Counted from the stretch's first letter, positions 4,807 through 47,916 are shown. The stretch is DNA of 64,000 nt from an uncultured Candidatus Binatia bacterium (GCA_965242525.1 OZ251459.1:3353515-3417514); one strand, 5' to 3'. Program-made: numbers and translations. The notes: a model not told the origin generated them from the letters alone.

Positions 4807-5457
4807 ATGAACAGGCAGAAACGCACCGCCATCTACGGCCGCCTCCGGGAGCGCAACCCCCGTCCCGAGACCGAGCTCGACTGGGTGGATCCTTTCGAGT
4901 TGCTGGTGGCGGTGGTGCTGTCGGCCCAGGCCACGGACGTGGGCGTCAACAAGGCCACCGCGAAGTTGTTCCCGGCGGCCAACACGCCCGAACAGATCCT
5001 CGCGCTGGGGACCGACGGGCTCAAACGCTACATCCGCACCATCGGCCTCTTCAACAGCAAGGCCGAGAACATCATCAAGACCTGCCGCATCCTCATGGAC
5101 CGGCACGCAGGCCAGGTCCCGCGCAGCCGCGAGGCCCTGGAGGCCCTGCCCGGCGTGGGCCGGAAGACCGCCAACGTCATCCTCAACACCGCCTTCGGCC
5201 AACCCACCATCGCGGTGGACACCCACATCTTCCGCGTGGCCAACCGCACCCGCCTGGCCCGCGGCAAGACGCCCCTGGAAGTCGAGCAGCGCCTGACCCG
5301 CCTCACCCCCCCGGAGTTCCGCAAGGACGCCCACCACTGGCTCATCCTCCACGGCCGCTACGTCTGCAAGGCCCGCAAGCCCGAATGCCCCACCTGCTTC
5401 CTCGCCGACCTGTGCGAGTTCCCGGACAAGACGCGAGAACCGGCGTCCGAGCCGTGA
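4807..5457 (+). CDS. nth: Endonuclease III (DNA glycosylase/AP lyase).
   Basis: HhH-GPD motif LPGVGRKTANVILN and C-terminal 4Fe-4S ligands CKARKPECPTCFLADLC. Collinear with the Nth family over its full length. Confidence 0.9.
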   Translation: MNRQKRTAIYGRLRERNPRPETELDWVDPFELLVAVVLSAQATDVGVNKATAKLFPAANTPEQILALGTDGLKRYIRTIGLFNSKAENIIKTCRILMDRHAGQVPRSREALEALPGVGRKTANVILNTAFGQPTIAVDTHIFRVANRTRLARGKTPLEVEQRLTRLTPPEFRKDAHHWLILHGRYVCKARKPECPTCFLADLCEFPDKTREPASEP

Positions 5458-5489: not shown

Positions 5490-5783
5490 TCAATCGGAAA
5501 GTGCGCCGAAAAATTTCTCCTTGTTTGAGAACCTCGCTCGATCTTCTTCGGTAGGTGGGTTACTCTGGTAGGGTGGACAGTGGTAGTAGTAGGTCCGCAC
5601 GACGCTTGATCTCGCGGCTATTGCCGAAACGAAAGCCCCATAGTCGATTCGCTGTCTGTTGAAGTGGTCGTCGAGCAGCTTGTCGATGTATCCCCCATCA
5701 AGAAAGACAACCGATCTGTCCACGAGGTGCGTCTCCTGTCGGCACGAAAAGGAGAGGGGTCCCTTGCAGGACCCCTCTCTCAT
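5490..5783 (-). pseudogene. N-terminal fragment (about 95 aa) of a NYN/LabA-like domain protein, probably a gene remnant.
   Basis: VVFLDGGYIDKLL ... VRTYYYHCPPY resembles the first half of the NYN domain (the FIDG.NL and YYY segments). No plausible start codon or RBS; it sits in the nth-hsdR gap. Confidence 0.3.
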
Positions 5784-6052: not shown

Positions 6053-8584
6053 ATGAACGAAGCCACAGCGCGCATCAAGATCAACAGACTGCTGGAAGCG
6101 GCCGGATGGCGGTTCTCCGACGAAGGAGACCATCGGGCCAACATCCGCCTCGAATCCGGCGTCACCATTGAACCGGCCGGTCTCGACGCCCTCGGAGACA
6201 ATTTCGAGAAAACCGCCCAAGGATTCATCGACTTCCTTTTGCTGGACGCCAAGGGATTCCCACTGATCGTTCTGGAGGCCAAGGCCGAGAACAAGAACCC
6301 GCTGGTAGGCAAGGAACAGGCGCGCAGGTACGCCCGCGCGCAGAACTGCCGTTTCGTGATCCTCTCCAACGGCAATCTGCACTACTTCTGGGATCTGGAA
6401 CGCGGCAGCCCATACATCATCACCACGTTCCCCAGGCCGGAGTCGGTAACCGGCTATCGGGAAGTAACGCCCGACCCGCAGCGCTTGGCGGAAGAACGGG
6501 TCAGCGACGACTACATTGTCCTGACCCAGCGCCCCAATTACGCGTCGGAAGCGGCTTGGAAGAGTGAAGCCGAACGCCCCATCTTCATCCGCGCCCATAA
6601 GCTGCGCTTTCTGCGTCCCTACCAACTGAATGCCGTCCTTGCCTTGCAACGCGCGGTCCGGGACGGCAACGACCGCTTTCTGTTCGAGATGGCTACCGGC
6701 ACGGGCAAGACGCTCACTGCAGCCGCGGTCATAAAGCTGTTCCTGCGCTCCCGCAACGCGCGCCGCGTGCTGTTCCTAGTGGACCGTCTGGAGTTGGAGG
6801 ATCAGACCCATAAGGTTTTCACCGCGTTGCTTTCCGTCGACTTCCAGACGGTCATCTACAAGGAGAAGCGCGACGATTGGCGGCGCGCCGAGATCGTCGT
6901 CAGCACGGTCCAATCCCTGCTGTTCAACAACAAGTACCAGCAGCTCTTCTCGCCCACGGATTTCGATCTGGTAATCTCCGACGAGGCGCATCGCTCCATC
7001 GGCGGTAACGCCCGGGCTGTGTTCGATTATTTCGTGGGCTACAAGCTCGGGCTCACCGCGACCCCGCGCGACTACCTGAAGGGTGCAGACCCCCAACGAG
7101 CCGCCAGTCATCCACGGGAGGCTGAGCGCCGGTTGCTGCTGGACACTTACCGTACCTTTGGCTGCGAGAGCGGACAGCCCACCTTTCGCTACTCGCTGTT
7201 GGACGGCGTGAAGGATGGCTACCTGATCAGCCCGACGGTGGTGGATGCGCGCACGGACGTGACCACCCGGCTCCTGTCCGAAGAAGGGTTCGTGGTCTCC
7301 TTCACCGACGAGACGGGCGACGACCGGGATGAGGCATACAGGCAGCGCGAGTTCGAGAAGCGTTTCTTCTCCGAAGCCACCAACCGCTTGTTCTGCAGGA
7401 CCTTCTTGGAGAACGCCTTGCGCGATCCGGTTAGCCGAGAGGTGGGCAAGTCCATCATCTTCGGAGTCAGCCAGAACCATGCCGCCAAGCTCGTCCATAT
7501 CTTCAACGCGATGGCCCATCGCATGTTCCCTGGCAAGTATCAGTCCGACTTCGCCGTGCAGGTGACCTCGCAGATACCGGACGCCCAGCCGTTTACCGTG
7601 AACTTCACCAACAACAACCTGCTGGGCTCGGGCAATTTCCTGCCCACGTACAGGAGCAGCAAGGCCCGTGTCTGTGTTACTGTAGGTATGATGACCACCG
7701 GGTACGACTGTACCGACGTCCTGAACCTTGGCATGTTTCGGCCCATTTTCTCGCCCACCGATTTCGTCCAGATCAAGGGCCGCGGCACCCGCAGGCACCG
7801 GTTCCTCGACCAACTCCACGATCCGGCGCTCGCAGAGAACGTCAGGCAGCCCGAAAAGACCGCCTTCAAGCTCTTTGACTTCTTCGCCAATTGTGAGTAC
7901 TTTGAGGAAGAATACGATTACGACCAGGTCATCGACCTGCCCAAAGCCGTCACGGACAACGGGCCAACCGACGGTGTTGTGGACGGGCCGCACACAGTGT
8001 TGGAAATATACGAGCATTCGGGTCCGGACGACTTGTCAATGGTGAAGGAAGAAACCATCGGCGTCGAGGGCATGAAGATCGACCGCATGTTCTTCGAGCG
8101 GTTCGAGGATACAGTGAAGGAGAATGGATTCATCGCCACGTGCGTCGAAGCCGGGGAGTGGGAGAAAGTGATCGAGTACGTCAACCGGGAAGTCTTCGAC
8201 AAGCCGGAGGAATACTACAGTTTGGACAAGCTTCGCAGAGCCGCGGCGGTGGACCGTCGCCTGACCCTGCGGGAGATCCTTGAAAAGGTCTTCGGCCTCA
8301 TCCCGCGCTTCAAGTCGAGGGACGAGTTGCTGGAGGAGGAGTTCGCCAAGTTCGTCGCCGATTACAAACCCAAAGAGGCGACGGCCATCCCCGCCCTCAA
8401 GACTTACTTCAAAGCGTACGCCACCAGTAACCAGATCCGCGACATCATCGAAAGCCGTAACTACACAGACCTCGCCACCAACCCGGCCTTTTCCACCCGG
8501 GACTTTCGCGCAGTGCCAGAGAGATACCGCGCCATCATCCCGAATTACATCAAGGACTACGTGCCACTGAACCAGTTCGCCTGA
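6053..8584 (+). CDS. hsdR: Type I restriction enzyme R subunit-like: N-terminal PD-(D/E)xK nuclease plus SF2 DEAD/DEAH motor, 843 aa.
   Basis: HSDR_N-type nuclease motif LLDAKGFPLIVLEAKAE. Helicase motifs LRPYQLNAV (Q), MATGTGKT (I), VISDEAHRS (II), LGLTATP (III) and QIKGRGTRR (VI). Confidence 0.8.
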   Translation: MNEATARIKINRLLEAAGWRFSDEGDHRANIRLESGVTIEPAGLDALGDNFEKTAQGFIDFLLLDAKGFPLIVLEAKAENKNPLVGKEQARRYARAQNCRFVILSNGNLHYFWDLERGSPYIITTFPRPESVTGYREVTPDPQRLAEERVSDDYIVLTQRPNYASEAAWKSEAERPIFIRAHKLRFLRPYQLNAVLALQRAVRDGNDRFLFEMATGTGKTLTAAAVIKLFLRSRNARRVLFLVDRLELEDQTHKVFTALLSVDFQTVIYKEKRDDWRRAEIVVSTVQSLLFNNKYQQLFSPTDFDLVISDEAHRSIGGNARAVFDYFVGYKLGLTATPRDYLKGADPQRAASHPREAERRLLLDTYRTFGCESGQPTFRYSLLDGVKDGYLISPTVVDARTDVTTRLLSEEGFVVSFTDETGDDRDEAYRQREFEKRFFSEATNRLFCRTFLENALRDPVSREVGKSIIFGVSQNHAAKLVHIFNAMAHRMFPGKYQSDFAVQVTSQIPDAQPFTVNFTNNNLLGSGNFLPTYRSSKARVCVTVGMMTTGYDCTDVLNLGMFRPIFSPTDFVQIKGRGTRRHRFLDQLHDPALAENVRQPEKTAFKLFDFFANCEYFEEEYDYDQVIDLPKAVTDNGPTDGVVDGPHTVLEIYEHSGPDDLSMVKEETIGVEGMKIDRMFFERFEDTVKENGFIATCVEAGEWEKVIEYVNREVFDKPEEYYSLDKLRRAAAVDRRLTLREILEKVFGLIPRFKSRDELLEEEFAKFVADYKPKEATAIPALKTYFKAYATSNQIRDIIESRNYTDLATNPAFSTRDFRAVPERYRAIIPNYIKDYVPLNQFA

Positions 8585-8603: not shown

Positions 8604-10451
8604 TTGCTCGACTCCACCACCAAACACCGTATTGACACCGCCCGTGATATCCTCGTGGGCAAGGTGCCTGACCCCAAGAGTCAGGTGGAGCAGATCACCA
8701 TCGCGCTCATCTATAAGTTCATGGACGATATGGACGCCGAAAGCGAGGAGTTGGGAGGACGGCGCAGGTTTTTTGCCAACAGGTTCGCCCGCTACGGCTG
8801 GACGAAGTTGATGCGCTCCGGCCTGGGGGGGCACGAAACCCTGAACCTCTATGCCGAAGCCATCACCCGTATGCCCGAGAACCCCGGCATTCCACCCCTG
8901 TTCCGCAGCATCTTTAACAATGCCTACCTGCCCTACCGCGACCCGGAGACCTTGCGCGCCTTCCTAAAGGTCATCAACGAGTTCACCTATGACCACTCGG
9001 AGCGGCTGGGAGACGCTTTCGAGTACCTGCTGTCCGTCATGGGTTCCCAGGGCGACGCTGGCCAGTTCCGCACCCCGCGCCACATCATCGACTTCATCGT
9101 CGCCATCATCGACCCGAAAAAGGATGAGACTATGCTCGATCCGGCGTGCGGTACCGGAGGTTTCCTCATCTCCTCTTACAAACACATCCTGAAGACCAAC
9201 ACGGACGAGGACGGGAACAGCACTCTCACGCCCGAAGACCGCCGCCGACTCGCCGTCAACTTCAAGGGCTACGATATCTCTCCCGACATGGTGCGCCTCT
9301 CCCTCGTGAATATGTACCTCCACGGCTTCGCCGACCCGCACATCTTGGAGTACGACACCCTCACCAGCCAGGAACACTGGAACGAGTACGCCGACGTCAT
9401 ACTGGCCAACCCCCCTTTCATGTCACCCAAGGGCGGCATCCGCCCACACAACCGGTTTTCGGTCCAGTCCAAGCGTAGCGAAGTCCTGTTCGTGGACTAC
9501 ATGGCCGAGCACTTGAACCCTACTGGCCGAGCCGGAATCATCGTACCCGAAGGCATCATCTTCCAGAGTCAAGGCGCACACACGAAATTGCGCCGGATGC
9601 TGGTAGAGGATTTCCTCGTAGCGGTCATTTCATTGCCAGCCGGCGTGTTCCAGCCCTATTCCGGCGTGAAGACCTCGATCCTGATCCTGGACAAGGCGCT
9701 GGCCAAACGGACAAACCGCATCGCTTTCTTCGGGGTGGAGAACGACGGCTACGATCTAGGAGCACAGCGACGACCGATCGAGGAGAACGACTTGCCACGC
9801 GTAACGGCCGAGATCGTAGAGTATCTGGGCCACTCGCGAACCGATAAATTCCTGAACGCTGCCGAACCGATACGCGCCGGGCAAGTGGCGGAGCCTAGGG
9901 GTACGTATACGACGGTCGAACCGTCCAGAGGCTTTCAACCTAATAGCGGACTCATCGTCGAGAAGGAACAAATCGCCACTCTTGGAGGCTATGGCTTGAA
10001 TGCGGTGCGTTATCAGGAAGGCGACACCCGCAAGAAGAAATCAAAGTGGCCACTTGTGAAAGTTAAGGATGTGTGCCAAGCTATTTTGGGTGGTGGCACT
10101 CCTTCTACGAAAAACGAAGAGTACTGGCAAGGGAAGATTCCTTGGATCACAAGTGCCGACATCGTAAATCTCACGACTGCGAGACCACGTCGATATATCA
10201 CGGAGAAAGCAATAAAGGAATCGGCCACCAACTTGATCCCCAAAGACAATGTGGTAGTTGTAACAAGAGTTGGCCTCGGGAAACTATTCAGGAACAGTTT
10301 TGATATATGTATTAGTCAAGACTCACATGGGTTGATCGTGAAAGATGGAGTCAATGCGGATTATCTGGTACAGATACTGAAAGACAAGGTGAAGGAATTC
10401 AAGAAAAGCAGTCAAGGTTCGACCATACAGGGAGTTACAAAAAGAGACTAG
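8604..10451 (+). CDS. hsdM: Type I R-M HsdM (N6-adenine methyltransferase) fused to a single HsdS-like target-recognition domain. Reading frame is interrupted at 10449.
   Basis: TTG start after a GAGGAGG RBS. HsdM_N region, motif I DPACGTGGFL, motif IV NPPF. The C-terminal ~200 aa (KVKDVCQAILGGGTPSTKNEEYWQGKIPWITSADI...) resembles an HsdS TRD. Confidence 0.8.
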   Translation: MLDSTTKHRIDTARDILVGKVPDPKSQVEQITIALIYKFMDDMDAESEELGGRRRFFANRFARYGWTKLMRSGLGGHETLNLYAEAITRMPENPGIPPLFRSIFNNAYLPYRDPETLRAFLKVINEFTYDHSERLGDAFEYLLSVMGSQGDAGQFRTPRHIIDFIVAIIDPKKDETMLDPACGTGGFLISSYKHILKTNTDEDGNSTLTPEDRRRLAVNFKGYDISPDMVRLSLVNMYLHGFADPHILEYDTLTSQEHWNEYADVILANPPFMSPKGGIRPHNRFSVQSKRSEVLFVDYMAEHLNPTGRAGIIVPEGIIFQSQGAHTKLRRMLVEDFLVAVISLPAGVFQPYSGVKTSILILDKALAKRTNRIAFFGVENDGYDLGAQRRPIEENDLPRVTAEIVEYLGHSRTDKFLNAAEPIRAGQVAEPRGTYTTVEPSRGFQPNSGLIVEKEQIATLGGYGLNAVRYQEGDTRKKKSKWPLVKVKDVCQAILGGGTPSTKNEEYWQGKIPWITSADIVNLTTARPRRYITEKAIKESATNLIPKDNVVVVTRVGLGKLFRNSFDICISQDSHGLIVKDGVNADYLVQILKDKVKEFKKSSQGSTIQGVTKRD

Positions 10452-10607
10452 CCGAAATTGAGATACCTCTTCCTCCGCCGATCGTACAACGAGAAATCGT
10501 AGAAGAGATAGAGAGGTGCCAAAAAGTTATAGACGAGGCATTAGAATTGGTAACGCAGATGAACAGCAAAATAGAGACAACCCTAACGCGAGTGTGGGAA
10601 TCATAGT
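10439..10607 (+). pseudogene. Frameshifted conserved C-terminal segment of HsdS (LAEIEIPLPPPIVQREIVEEIERCQKVIDEALELVTQMNSKIETTLTRVWES). An A5 tract at 10439-10443 separates the two frames.
   Basis: Frame 2 downstream of the TAG at 10449 encodes the canonical HsdS 'IPLPPLxEQ' conserved region. One extra A in the A5 run would fuse it in frame, giving ...STIQGVTKKRLAEIEIPLPP... Confidence 0.6.
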
Positions 10608-10610
10608 TTT

Positions 10611-12278
10611 ATGAGAGAGAATCAAATGTATTGGGATATTCCGCAAATTGTCGGCGAGCCGCTGCATATACCTATCACTGGCGGCGACCGGATTTTCATC
10701 GTAGGTCCCAACGGTTCGGGAAAATCAGCGTTGATTCAGCACTTTGTCTCGTTACATGGGTCTCAGAATCAGCCTCAGGAAATCCAACGTATTGCAGCGC
10801 ATAGGCAGACATGGCTTACTTCGGGAAGCATTGATGTTACACCGAAGAAACGCAGACAGTTTGATGAAATCTTTAAGACATATGAAACCGATCCTGCCTC
10901 ACGATGGATGGATAGGAGTCCGCACGAGAGACAGTCAGCGGTGCTCTTTGATTTGGTTGCGCAAGAGAATGATCGAGCCCGTCGCATTACTCGTCAAGTT
11001 GACGATGGAAAGGAGTGTGAAGCGAAACGAATCGCTGCTAGAACAACATCTCCTTTCGCTCGACTCAACGATCTATTACAATGTGGAATGTTGACAATCA
11101 CACTTGAAGATTCGCTTGGGGAAGAGATACTGGCTCGGCATCGAGGTACGGAAACCTCCTTCAGCATGGCGCAGATGTCGGATGGGGAACGAAATGCTGC
11201 TATTATTGCCGCTAATGTATTGACTGTGAAACCTGATACTATATTGTTAATCGATGAACCGGAGCGGCATTTGCACAGGTCGATTATTGAGCCTTTTCTT
11301 TCTGCCGTGTTTGAACAACGACAAGACTGTGCGTTCATCATTTCGACACATGAGCTCGCCCTGCCGATTGCCAATCCAAGAGCACAAGTTCTTATGGTTC
11401 GATCATGTAGATGGGGGGCGGATACTGCAGAAGCGTGGGATGCGCAACTTCTCAAAGCAAGTCCGGAACTACCGGAAGATCTGAAACGCTTGATCCTGGG
11501 TGCTCGAAGGAGAATTTTGTTTGTCGAGGGCACCTCAGGCAGCTTAGACCTACCACTTTATACTACTCTATTCCCGAAGGTCTCCGTGGTGTCGCAGGGG
11601 AGTTGTACTGATCTCCTAAGGGCCGTAAAAGGCTTGCGAGAGACTACAAACCTGCATCACGTCGAGGCATTTGGTCTTATTGACCGGGATAACCGCGGAG
11701 AGGATGAGGTTAAACAATTGTTTGATAATGGAGTGTTTGCTCTCGAAGTGTACTCAGTGGAAGCGCTTTACTATTCTCTGGACGCTATTGAAGCGGTGGC
11801 TCGTTGGCAAGCGAATTCATTCAGGTGCAGCGCCGATGAGATGATCGCGTCTGTGAAAGAGGAAGCATTGCGTGTCTTGGAGGAAAGCGATTTGGCAGAA
11901 AGAATGGCAGCACGACGAAGTGCCGGTCGGATACATGCTGAATTATTGTCACAAATGCCTGATTGGAAATACATCAGAGACCATAGGGGTAGCAGATTCA
12001 AAGTTTCCGTGGAGTCTCCGTACTCAGAGGAACTGGAGCATTTTCGCAAACTTGTTGCCGAAAAGAGATTGGATGAACTCGTCGCACGCTATCCGTTACG
12101 CGAGAGTCGTCTATTCAATACCATTGCCAACGCTTTGAAGTGTCGTTACAGAAGTGACTACGAGCAGATGGTGCTTTCCCGGCTTAGAGACGCCGAGAAT
12201 CTGGCTCAGAAGCTGAAACAACGCGTCGGCCCTCTCGCGACGGAGCTTGAGCGGGCTACCTCCCGGGAAGCAGGCTGA
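10611..12278 (+). CDS. ABC-type ATPase fused to a DUF4435/TOPRIM-like domain: an OLD-family or fused AriA-AriB (PARIS)-like defence protein.
   Basis: Walker A GPNGSGKS, signature-like MSDGER, Walker B/H ILLIDEPERHLH. C-terminal half has TOPRIM-type acidic motifs ILFVEGTSGSLD and FGLIDRDNRGEDE. About 44% GC against a ~69% background, and begins four nucleotides after the hsdS end. Confidence 0.65.
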   Translation: MRENQMYWDIPQIVGEPLHIPITGGDRIFIVGPNGSGKSALIQHFVSLHGSQNQPQEIQRIAAHRQTWLTSGSIDVTPKKRRQFDEIFKTYETDPASRWMDRSPHERQSAVLFDLVAQENDRARRITRQVDDGKECEAKRIAARTTSPFARLNDLLQCGMLTITLEDSLGEEILARHRGTETSFSMAQMSDGERNAAIIAANVLTVKPDTILLIDEPERHLHRSIIEPFLSAVFEQRQDCAFIISTHELALPIANPRAQVLMVRSCRWGADTAEAWDAQLLKASPELPEDLKRLILGARRRILFVEGTSGSLDLPLYTTLFPKVSVVSQGSCTDLLRAVKGLRETTNLHHVEAFGLIDRDNRGEDEVKQLFDNGVFALEVYSVEALYYSLDAIEAVARWQANSFRCSADEMIASVKEEALRVLEESDLAERMAARRSAGRIHAELLSQMPDWKYIRDHRGSRFKVSVESPYSEELEHFRKLVAEKRLDELVARYPLRESRLFNTIANALKCRYRSDYEQMVLSRLRDAENLAQKLKQRVGPLATELERATSREAG

Positions 12279-12368: not shown

Positions 12369-12650
12369 ATGCGCTACGTCGCGCTCATCCACGGTGGTGA
12401 CGGTTCCGGTTTCGGCATCAGCTTCCCCGACTTTCCCGGATATGCGTCGGATGGCGACACCGTGGAGGAAGCCTTCCACCGCGGCGCCGAGGCGCTGGCC
12501 TTTCACATCGAGGGCATGATCGAGGACGGAGAAACCATCCCGGAACCGCTCGGCGTCCAGGAGGTCAGGGCCGATCCGAGCCTTGCGGAATGGCGGGAGG
12601 GCGCGGACGTGGCCTTCGTTCCTCTCGTCCTCGACAAGGGTTCCCCGTGA
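12369..12650 (+). CDS. HicB-family (UPF0150) antitoxin-like protein; an orphan copy.
   Basis: MRYVALIHGGDGSGFGISFPDFPGYASDGDTVEEAFHRGAEALAFHIE is the HicB N-terminal RNase-H-like fold signature. Confidence 0.6.
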   Translation: MRYVALIHGGDGSGFGISFPDFPGYASDGDTVEEAFHRGAEALAFHIEGMIEDGETIPEPLGVQEVRADPSLAEWREGADVAFVPLVLDKGSP

Positions 12651-12712
12651 CGTGTCCGCGTCTCTCTGGATTACGGTTCGCTGCAGGCCATCCACAAAGG
12701 GCACTCATGGCC

Positions 12713-12901
12713 TCATTTGAGTACTTCCACCCCAAGGTCCCTGCATATCTTCTTCGCTAGGATGTCCTTTATCTCGGAATGCCGTGGAATCGCGGAACGC
12801 TTGTTCAAAGCAGGGTTGTGCCACCACGAATGCTTGCGGCCTTCCCGCAGGAGGTCACACCCCCGGCTTCGTAGATACTGCAAGAGTTCGTTTCTCTTCA
12901 C
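12713..12901 (-). CDS. hicA: HicA mRNA interferase toxin, 62 aa.
   Basis: MKRNELLQYLRSRGCDLLREGRKHSWWHNP...IPRHSEIKD matches the HicA dsRBD-like architecture (conserved G..H, P.H). Confidence 0.7.
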   Translation of the reverse strand: MKRNELLQYLRSRGCDLLREGRKHSWWHNPALNKRSAIPRHSEIKDILAKKICRDLGVEVLK

Positions 12902-13110
12902 AGGGTGACGGTTTCTTCCCTGAAGTCACTTCCCGCCGCCTTCAGGGCATCCCGCCGGTTGAATTCCAGTGCTTCCCGGAGCGTTACCGCCAAGGTGTCC
13001 ATCAACTCTTCATGGGTCCTTTCCTGGCAGTTCACTCCGGGCACTTCTTCGATCCATCCCAGCCACCAGTCGCCTTCCTGCTTGACGACGGCGGTATATT
13101 CCTTTTCCAT
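12898..13110 (-). CDS. hicB: HicB antitoxin; overlaps the hicA start by 4 nt.
   Basis: MEKEYTAVVKQEGDWWLGWIEEVPGVNCQERTHEELMDTLAVTLREALEF is HicB/UPF0150. The upstream in-frame Met at 13218 lacks an RBS. Confidence 0.6.
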   Translation of the reverse strand: MEKEYTAVVKQEGDWWLGWIEEVPGVNCQERTHEELMDTLAVTLREALEFNRRDALKAAGSDFREETVTL

Positions 13111-13263
13111 GGTGGTTGCCTCCGTACCAGGCCCCGTGATGCGGTCGGCTGCGCCGAAGCGGGTTTTCAGGTGCTGCCGGTCTGAGGGTTCAAGTCTATA
13201 CTGTCGGTCCGGGATCATGCAACGTCGCTGTCGTTCTGCCTATTTCACGACACGCTCCCGCAC

Positions 13264-46219: not shown

Positions 46220-47916
46220 TCAACCACGGTTCGATTTTTCGTCGGCAAGCCCGTATGTCTCCCGGGCCTGCCGTCGTGACACGTATCCGTCCTCGACGTC
46301 CTGGCGCACGAGTTCCGGGGGACGTTCCCGGGGGTTGCCGTAACCGCCGCCTCCGCTGCGGAAGACGGCGAGTCTGGCGCCGGCCCGCAGCGACCGGGTT
46401 TCCAGGATATCGACTTCGGACGGCTCTTCGCCCGGTTGCTGGATCGTGGTCCTGGAGGTGGGCGGGCCTCCGCCGCCGTTCAGGCCCCATGACGCCTGTC
46501 GATGGTTTGCCGAGCGCACCGTGAGCATGCAGTCGGACAGGAACTCGTACTCGCGGACGAACCCGGCGCCGCCGCGCCAGCGCCCGGGGCCGGCCGAGTC
46601 CGGCCAGATCTCGTAACGGCGGACGGTAACGGGATATTCCGTCTCCAGGATCTCCACCGGCGTGCCGGGGGCGAAATGGTTGACCGGCATCACGATGGAC
46701 GCTCCGTCATGGTCGCGGGTGCCGCCCAGCGAGGTGATCAGGATCTCGTACTGGACGGTGGGCCGGCCCGAACGGCCTTCCCCGTAGCCGACGGCAATGG
46801 CGCCGGCGCCCAGGCCGGAGGGGGCCACCGCCCGGCGGGGGTTGAAGCGTCCGACCGCGGCGAGGACGCAGTTATAGACCAAGTGGGACGTGGGAAAGTA
46901 GTGGTTGACGGTTGCCGGGAAACGGGGGCTCAGCACGAGCCCCGGCGGCATCTCGAACTCGACGGCCTCGAACGCGCCCGCGTTCATGGGGATGCTCGGG
47001 TCCGACGCCGCCAGGACCGCTTGCATGGAGACCGCCCGAGCCGTTACCCCCGTCGTGTTCACGGGTCCGGGGGCCTGGGGGTCGCTGCCGGAGAAGTCGA
47101 GGGTCAACCGCTCCCCGGCCTTGACGGCCCGGACATGCACCCGCACTGGCCTGGACCGGTCCGCGCCGTCGTGGTCCAGGAACCCTTCCGCCTCGAACTC
47201 CCCGTCCGGCCATGAGGCGATCTCGCTGCGGACCCGGTTCGTCGTGCGCGTCAGCAGTTCCTCGACAGCGCCGAGCAGGGTGTCCGCGCCGTATTCGCGC
47301 AGCAGCGCCTGGAACCGGCTGGCCCCGAGCCTCGTGGCCCCCACCTGTCCGCGCAGGTCGCCGAGCACCACGTCCGGAATGCGGCTGTTGTTGCGAAGGA
47401 TCGCCTCCACCTCGGGCTGTACTCCCTCGGACGTGGCGAACCGCACCGGCGGCAGCAGGATCCCGTCGTGGAAGATCTCGCGCGCGGCGGCACCGCTCGA
47501 CCCCGGCACAAGGCCGCCGACGTCGGCCTTGTGGGCCACGCTGACGCCGAAAGCCACCACCCTGCCCTCGTGGAAAGCCGGCGTCGCCACGACCATGTCG
47601 GGCACATGGCTGTTCCCCGCCTTGTAGGGATCGTTGGAAACGAACGAATCCCCTTCGCTCATGTCCGCCGCCGGATAGCGTTCCAGGACGCCGGCCACCG
47701 ACTGCGAATACAGCAGGGAATGGTATTGGAGGCCTCCGCCCACCATGATTACCCGGCCGTCGCGGTCGGTCAGCCCGGCGGTGCCGTCCTGGGACTCGCG
47801 CAGGATCGGCGAGTAGCCGCTGTGGAACAGCGCGTGCGCCATGGACGCGGTGACCTCCCGCAGCCGGCTCAGCACGACCTCGATGGTGATGGGATCCAGG
47901 CTCATGACGCCCTCTC
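46220..47916 (-). CDS. hyuB: Hydantoinase B / 5-oxoprolinase-family subunit.
   Basis: MSLDPITIEVVLSRL... Hydantoinase_B family throughout. ATG at 47916; track ORF 46220..49408 is a run-on through hyuA antisense frames. Confidence 0.8.

Follow-up and report, generated by a model that had tools for sequence, protein, structure and literature searches.

A probable single-polypeptide PARIS gene adjoining Type I restriction-modification genes in an uncultured Candidatus Binatia bacterium

We analyzed a 64,000-nucleotide stretch of DNA (hereafter, the window) from an uncultured Candidatus Binatia bacterium and found that a gene at positions 10611..12278 (+), which we call ariAB, encodes a complete ABC ATPase in covalent fusion with a Toprim nuclease that resembles AriB and bears a helical domain. 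The gene is most probably a single-polypeptide PARIS, the "merged" AriAB form that combines AAA_21 and DUF4435, and it would be transcribed together with the specificity end of a Type I restriction-modification (R-M) operon, to which its translation is probably coupled.

Domain architecture and conservation of ariAB

ORF calling on the window found ariAB as a 555-codon frame running from ATG 10611, which would yield a protein of 555 aa. The probable true start is ATG 10626, giving 550 aa, because most homologs begin at the equivalent of M6, as does P0001, an identical database protein of 550 aa. The sequence GAGAGAG precedes this second ATG.

All of the motifs that had been quoted in an earlier note on this DNA are present in the translation. 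The ABC ATPase half (residues 1-285; 10611..11465, +) contains a Walker A motif, GPNGSGKS, at residues 32-39 (nucleotides 10704-10727), a Q-loop region at residues 63-68, the signature MSDGER at residues 189-194 (11175-11192), a Walker B motif, LLIDEPE, at residues 212-218 (11244-11264), and an H-loop at residues 245-248. It is followed by the Toprim core of the DUF4435 domain (residues ~299-398; 11505..11804, +), which carries ILFVEGTSGSLD at residues 302-313, with FVEG at 304-307, and IDRDNRGEDE at residues 357-366, with IDRDN at 357-361. The remainder of the protein is a C-terminal all-helical domain (residues ~399-555; 11805..12275, +).

We assessed the conservation of these motifs in an alignment of 47 homologs. 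Five acidic residues of the Toprim core (E306, D313, D358, D360, and E384) are invariant in this alignment, and they correspond in order and spacing to the metal ligands of AriB, which are E26, D30, D88, E90, and E122 (PMC11464382); the nuclease half has an AriB-like Toprim fold with conserved metal-binding acidic residues. Within the ATPase half, Walker A, the signature (S190, G192, and E193), and H247 are conserved, A63, H64, and R65 of the Q-loop region are invariant and Q66 nearly so, and D215 of Walker B is invariant with E216 nearly so. Judged from its sequence, every catalytic motif of ariAB is intact.

Profile searches placed the gene within PARIS. The rule under which these systems were originally detected calls for AAA_21 or AAA_15 above its gathering score together with DUF4435 (Rousset 2022, PMC9122126). 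In ariAB, Pfam AAA_21 scored 60.9 bits against a cut-off of 27 (E=2.8e-16), AAA_15 scored 24.7 bits, under its cut-off of 32.1, and DUF4435 (PF14491) scored 33.3 bits against a cut-off of 27 over residues 302-398 of the same polypeptide; ABC_tran also matched. The strongest PADLOC match was to the fused AriAB model PDLC02982 (E=3e-53, 179 bits), aligning residues 180-535 to profile positions 210-556 of 570 and leaving the N-terminal 180 residues outside the best stretch. A second AriAB model and the separate AriA and AriB models matched more weakly, with AriB (PDLC02983) at E=1.7e-7. The description of the gene as fused and AriAB-like, for which the earlier note had proposed an HMM search, was therefore borne out.

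The same note had argued that the ATPase half is shorter than a typical AriA and that the protein may consequently be a distinct variant. The ATPase is indeed short, but this is the norm for the whole merged AAA_21 and DUF4435 class, since the PADLOC model has 570 positions and the listed members of the family are mostly 535-560 aa. AlphaFold2, run on the full-length protein with a 47-sequence alignment, predicted a two-domain protein (pLDDT 84, pTM 0.56), and the C-terminal half modeled alone gave a pLDDT of 86 and a pTM of 0.81. In the predicted secondary structure, a short insertion of four helices and ~80 aa (residues ~78-158; 10842..11084, +) separates the Walker A lobe from the signature motif, occupying the position of the coiled-coil and trigger-binding region of AriA. 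No other part of the ATPase half varies as much, column entropy peaking at residues 81-110 and 121-150.

Searching 5.8 billion proteins yielded more than 100 full-length relatives of 535-571 aa that are 54-79% identical to AriAB and share its Pfam architecture. When the C-terminal domain was searched exhaustively as an HMM, 2115 cluster representatives were recovered, 503 of them at E<=1e-30; the full-length proteins among the hits were again mostly 535-560 aa and carried the domain at ~275-550. IMG/VR viral contigs encode eleven of the relatives. We also found that ariAB is under purifying selection, with a dN/dS of 0.28 against the homolog at locus L020 and 0.31 against that at L018, and similar values in both halves. 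Given these selection estimates and the number of full-length homologs that share its architecture, the ORF is more than a chance reading frame.

Upstream R-M genes and the surrounding island

Two R-M genes precede ariAB on the same strand. The first, hsdR (6053..8584, +), encodes a Type I restriction subunit of 843 aa with Pfam ResIII, HSDR_N, and HSDR_N_2 domains, and it is 72% identical to the hsdR of a Caldilineaceae MAG locus (L001) that shares the order hsdR, hsdM·S, ariAB. The second (8604..10451, +; 615 aa) combines hsdM with a single-TRD half-S in the same ORF, with matches to N6_Mtase and Methylase_S, and it is truncated by a frameshift; the L001 locus has an intact 676-aa hsdM·S fusion. 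The frameshift site, an A5 run at ~10439-10443, and the out-of-frame S C-terminus together span 10439..10606 (+). A change of 1 nt in the A-run (ACAAAAAG, ~10437-10444) stops the hsdM·S ORF at 10451, and the conserved S C-terminus (KKRLAEIEIPLPP...VWES, then stop) runs on in the -1 frame to TAG 10604-10606. A -1 slip on the Lys codons at ACAAAAAG would restore ...TKKRLAEIEIPLPP...VWES and the stop.

The same S frameshift occurs in independent metagenome assemblies, those of L020 and L021, and is therefore inherited rather than a sequencing error. It could be an inactivating mutation that has been passed on, or it could be a site of slippage-dependent, phase-variable expression. The adjacent R-M system may accordingly be inactive, and this weakens a literal "guarding" role for ariAB in this genome. 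The frameshift also bears on the earlier statement that the gene starts 4 nt after the hsdS terminus: the two genes do abut, but the terminus at 10606 is reached only in the shifted frame, and the spacing from the S stop to the ariAB start is 4 nt or, more likely, 19 nt. With either start codon, the arrangement of S and ariAB is operonic.

Together with the R-M genes, ariAB occupies an island of low GC bounded by nth (4807-5457) and a cluster comprising HicB, HicA-HicB, and ATPase_2 genes. The composition of ariAB is foreign relative to its host, with a GC content of 0.493 and a GC3 of 0.47, compared to a GC of ~0.70 in the flanks, a whole-window mean of 0.657, and a GC3 of 0.94 in the housekeeping neighbor nth. 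The earlier contrast of about 44% GC with a background of about 69% was thus right in that the gene is far AT-richer than its surroundings, although it set the gene's own value too low. The hsdR and hsdM genes have a GC of 0.59 and a GC3 of 0.80, and the hsdS target-recognition domain has a GC of 0.45. The ariAB allele of the window (10611-12278) is itself a recombinant mosaic when compared with the alleles at L018 (2368-4035) and L020 (8001-9641): in the ATPase half, dS is 0.23 to L018 and 0.72 to L020, while in the nuclease half it is 0.62 to L018 and 0.18 to L020.

The L020 and L021 loci, whose flanks are 92-96% identical to the window, lack the segment 5462..10053, which holds a 97-aa ORF, hsdR, hsdM, and the 5' part of the TRD (blastn against L020). 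The order of genes in L020 is nth, a 3' remnant of the S-TRD, an intact 546-aa ariAB with 83% nucleotide identity to that of the window, and the same Hic genes. Given that these relatives have lost hsdR and hsdM and yet have kept an intact ariAB, we conclude that ariAB is autonomous. The clean 4.6-kb deletion in this near-isogenic relative (L020 7272-7430) amounts to a natural "knockout" of the R-M system.

Several further features of the island and its counterparts were observed. Toxin-antitoxin genes with Pfam HicB_lk_antitox and HicA_toxin matches occupy 12369..13218, directly 3' of ariAB, and are syntenic in L020; an orphan HicB-like antitoxin gene (12369-12650, +) stands beside a convergent pair made up of HicA (12713-12901, -) and its probable HicB partner (12898-13218, -). 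A HicA gene also lies 3' of the ariAB homolog in L022. At the island edge, the 97-aa ORF (5490-5783, -; VFLDGGYIDKLL...) had no Pfam match; we take it to resemble the N-terminal part of an NYN/LabA-like protein. Genes with NYN domains adjoin ariAB in L002 and L026. Downstream of the homolog in L026 are a 350-aa AAA_15/AAA_21 ATPase and a DUF3226 protein (8920-10601), and upstream of the homolog in L018 is a 535-aa AAA_15/AAA_21 ATPase (264-1871); these ATPases may be additional ATPase-based defense modules stacked with AriAB. Elsewhere in the window, ARAGORN called an 82-nt "tRNA-Asn" with the unusual anticodon ATT (46752-46833, -), which may be spurious or may represent an atypical tRNA-like element.

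Linkage to R-M genes and alternative readings

We compared the neighborhoods of ariAB across its relatives. In the clade of at least 44% identity, ~14 of 27 loci are adjacent to R-M genes, and at about half of the loci ariAB directly follows hsdS, at a distance of 0 to 26 nt or with a short overlap. The hsdS stop and the ariAB ATG are separated by 0 nt (TGA-ATG, TAG-ATG, or TAA-ATG) in L004, L011, L024, and L030. In three further loci hsdS runs into ariAB, by 20 nt in L007 and L029 and by 4 nt in L001. The order hsdM-hsdS-ariAB-hsdR, in some cases with further genes before hsdR, occurs in L004, L005, L007, L011, L024, L029, and L030. L026 has hsdR, then after an interval an M·S fusion followed by ariAB, L006 has an Eco57I-like IIG enzyme upstream of ariAB, and L003 retains only an S remnant. 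In the clade of 30-41% identity, only ~5 of 45 informative loci are R-M-adjacent, and the upstream neighbors are heterogeneous, including integrases, a resolvase, HerA, and a ligase.

The suggestion that ariAB guards the R-M system therefore finds support only in gene context, given its position directly 3' of hsdS in about half of the closest loci, but the linkage is not obligatory, as L020 demonstrates. A first alternative is that AriAB is a guardian of the PrrC kind, kept latent by binding physically to the upstream Type I Hsd complex and firing when that complex is inhibited, instead of binding an anti-restriction protein itself. The slot that prrC occupies, between hsdS and hsdR, is filled by ariAB in the seven loci with that gene order, the abutment of stop and start codons suggests stoichiometric co-expression of AriAB with S, and PrrC follows the same domain logic of an ABC ATPase N-domain and a nuclease C-domain (PMC2610378, PMC3506569). 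We nevertheless regard this alternative as unlikely. The partner R-M systems belong to at least three unrelated architectures (an M·S fusion with an 843-aa R, classical hsdMSR, and the Eco57I-like IIG enzyme of L006), the S moiety in the window is frameshifted, and R-M neighbors are missing from roughly one in two close loci and from ~90% of the distant ones. In a close relative, moreover, ariAB has outlasted hsdR and hsdM, remaining intact and subject to purifying selection. Obligatory linkage to a Type I R-M system, which is a trait of PrrC, was not found in the family: L020 and L021 have neither hsdR nor hsdM, and many members are stand-alone. Nor did the Pfam hits include a PrrC-type or HEPN family of the kind expected for a HEPN-type ACNase C-domain (PrrC/RloC); the C-terminal half is DUF4435/Toprim.

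A second alternative, which the earlier note had also entertained, is that the gene encodes a class-1 OLD-family nuclease, a DNase unrelated to PARIS that carries ATPase and Toprim in a single chain and is triggered by inhibition of RecBCD or something similar. OLD proteins have the same single-chain layout, and Foldseek aligned the full AriAB model with the Ts OLD structure 6p74 at E=2e-6. Against the PARIS reading, solved AriA matched AriAB only marginally by sequence (E=0.0028, over the signature to Walker B region alone), and HMM comparison detected no similarity to solved AriB. In the structure comparison, AriB scored above every OLD and GajA structure. Pfam Toprim_OLD (PF20469) gave no match at E<=1, whereas DUF4435 passed its cut-off, and AriAB was the best PADLOC hit by 40 orders of magnitude, with the ATPase-Toprim model matching the Walker B region only. 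We therefore consider an OLD-family identity very improbable, and prefer the reading of the gene as a merged AriAB.

The idea that the gene encodes an ordinary ATPase subunit of the ABC transporter or ABC-F type, or that it is a remnant of a mobile element, in decay and without function, draws on PDB and NCBIfam sequence hits to ABC-F proteins and transporter NBDs and on the degraded state of the island, with its frameshifted S and truncated neighboring ORF, but it is effectively refuted by the Pfam, PADLOC, NCBIfam, dN/dS, and structure comparisons: the NCBIfam hits all fall far under their cut-offs (the best at 43 bits versus 380) and cover P-loop or signature segments only, there is a single NBD with no permease gene nearby, the C-terminal 270 residues are a Toprim and helical domain, and dN/dS is ~0.3 with all motifs invariant.

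Proposed mechanism and relation to known systems

The work that discovered PARIS already described single-gene ariAB fusions, along with HMMs for AAA_21 and DUF4435 (PMC9122126), and these fusions form two clades ("merged 1 and 2") in the PARIS phylogeny (PMC11464382). The class is listed as "PARIS_II_merge" in DefenseFinder, a name that also occurs in genome surveys, and as AriAB in PADLOC. The window gene shares with it the AAA_21-type ABC ATPase, DUF4435, and length (550-555 aa, against a model of 570 positions), and we found no structural difference between the two. Since the fused class has already been described, the gene adds a member rather than a new kind of system, and it stands out only in its context, namely its abutment to a frameshifted hsdM·S, its foreign composition, and its mosaic allele. 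We found no functional or structural experiments on any fused AriAB in the searchable literature, and no description of the tight coupling of hsdS to ariAB or of the PrrC-like slot in the literature we searched.

The best-characterized comparison is the PARIS of E. coli B185 (AriA and AriB; PDB 8UX9, 8V46), which likewise combines an ABC ATPase with a DUF4435/Toprim nuclease bearing a C-terminal helical domain, has the five-residue acidic pattern in common with AriAB, and presumably works by the same logic of an ATPase sensor restraining a toxic nuclease. It differs in that it is encoded by two genes in a P4 satellite hotspot, and AriB is released from an AriA hexamer, whereas AriAB is one polypeptide encoded in an R-M operon and its nuclease cannot be released. 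In AriA (464 aa), Ocr is bound by IS1, a coiled coil, and IS2, which also build one of the hexamer's two interfaces (PMC10802264, PMC11464382). This coiled-coil and IS1-IS2 region, which provides both the hexamer CC interface and trigger binding, was not found in AriAB, where the ~80-aa insertion takes its place. With an insert of only ~80 residues, the oligomeric state, the trigger site, and the trigger itself may all differ from those of AriA.

By analogy with the restraint, triggering, and tRNA cutting described for E. coli PARIS (PMC11464382, PMC10802264, PMC12409363), we propose that the ATPase module of resting AriAB would hold the Toprim domains inactive and non-dimerised, and that it would do so without the need for R-M proteins. 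A phage-derived cue would then alter the ATP-dependent way in which the ATPase domains engage head to head. To judge from E. coli PARIS and from where the gene lies, the most likely cue would be an anti-restriction protein or a DNA mimic acting to disable the neighboring R-M enzyme. Two nuclease domains within the oligomer could subsequently pair and cut host RNA, by analogy a tRNA such as tRNA-Lys, such that translation would stop and the infection would be aborted. We infer both the trigger and the target in this scheme, the target (tRNA or DNA) purely by analogy. Given that the nuclease is tethered and that a short insert replaces the coiled coil, the release-from-hexamer step cannot apply, and activation must differ from that of E. 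coli PARIS; it must instead be a rearrangement within the complex, closer in spirit to OLD or GajA.

Comparison with other fused systems helps to delimit the class. [quoted passage not shown] PrrC, from the EcoprrI Type Ic locus, similarly fuses an ABC-type NTPase N-domain to a nuclease C-domain, its gene also follows hsdS, just as ariAB lies between hsdS and hsdR in many of the homologous loci, and both are proposed to serve as a second line that acts once restriction has been disabled (PMC2610378, PMC3506569). The nuclease of PrrC is, however, a HEPN-type ACNase and that of AriAB a Toprim/DUF4435 domain, and, unlike PrrC, AriAB accompanies several unrelated R-M architectures, is often stand-alone, and persists after the loss of hsdR and hsdM.

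A bolder possibility, to which we give rather little credence, is that the hsdS-coupled, fused AriAB is a dedicated "restriction-guardian" module that dispenses with both the AriA hexamer and nuclease release. Its tethered Toprim domains would pair once a switch within the complex had occurred, and what sets that switch would possibly be the condition of the co-expressed Type I methyltransferase/specificity complex, as for PrrC, and not direct capture of an anti-restriction protein.

For this genome, the practical consequence is that the gene should be annotated as a PARIS-type (AriAB) defense gene and not as an "AAA family ATPase." More broadly, merged AriAB offers a compact setting, built from one gene, for studying how a Toprim nuclease that stays tethered is controlled by its ABC ATPase. 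The coupling of hsdS to ariAB and the PrrC-like slot are modest additions to what has been described, although they make the mechanism of the class testable: the recurrent stop-start junctions, together with that slot, lead to the prediction that this class of PARIS monitors attacks on restriction.
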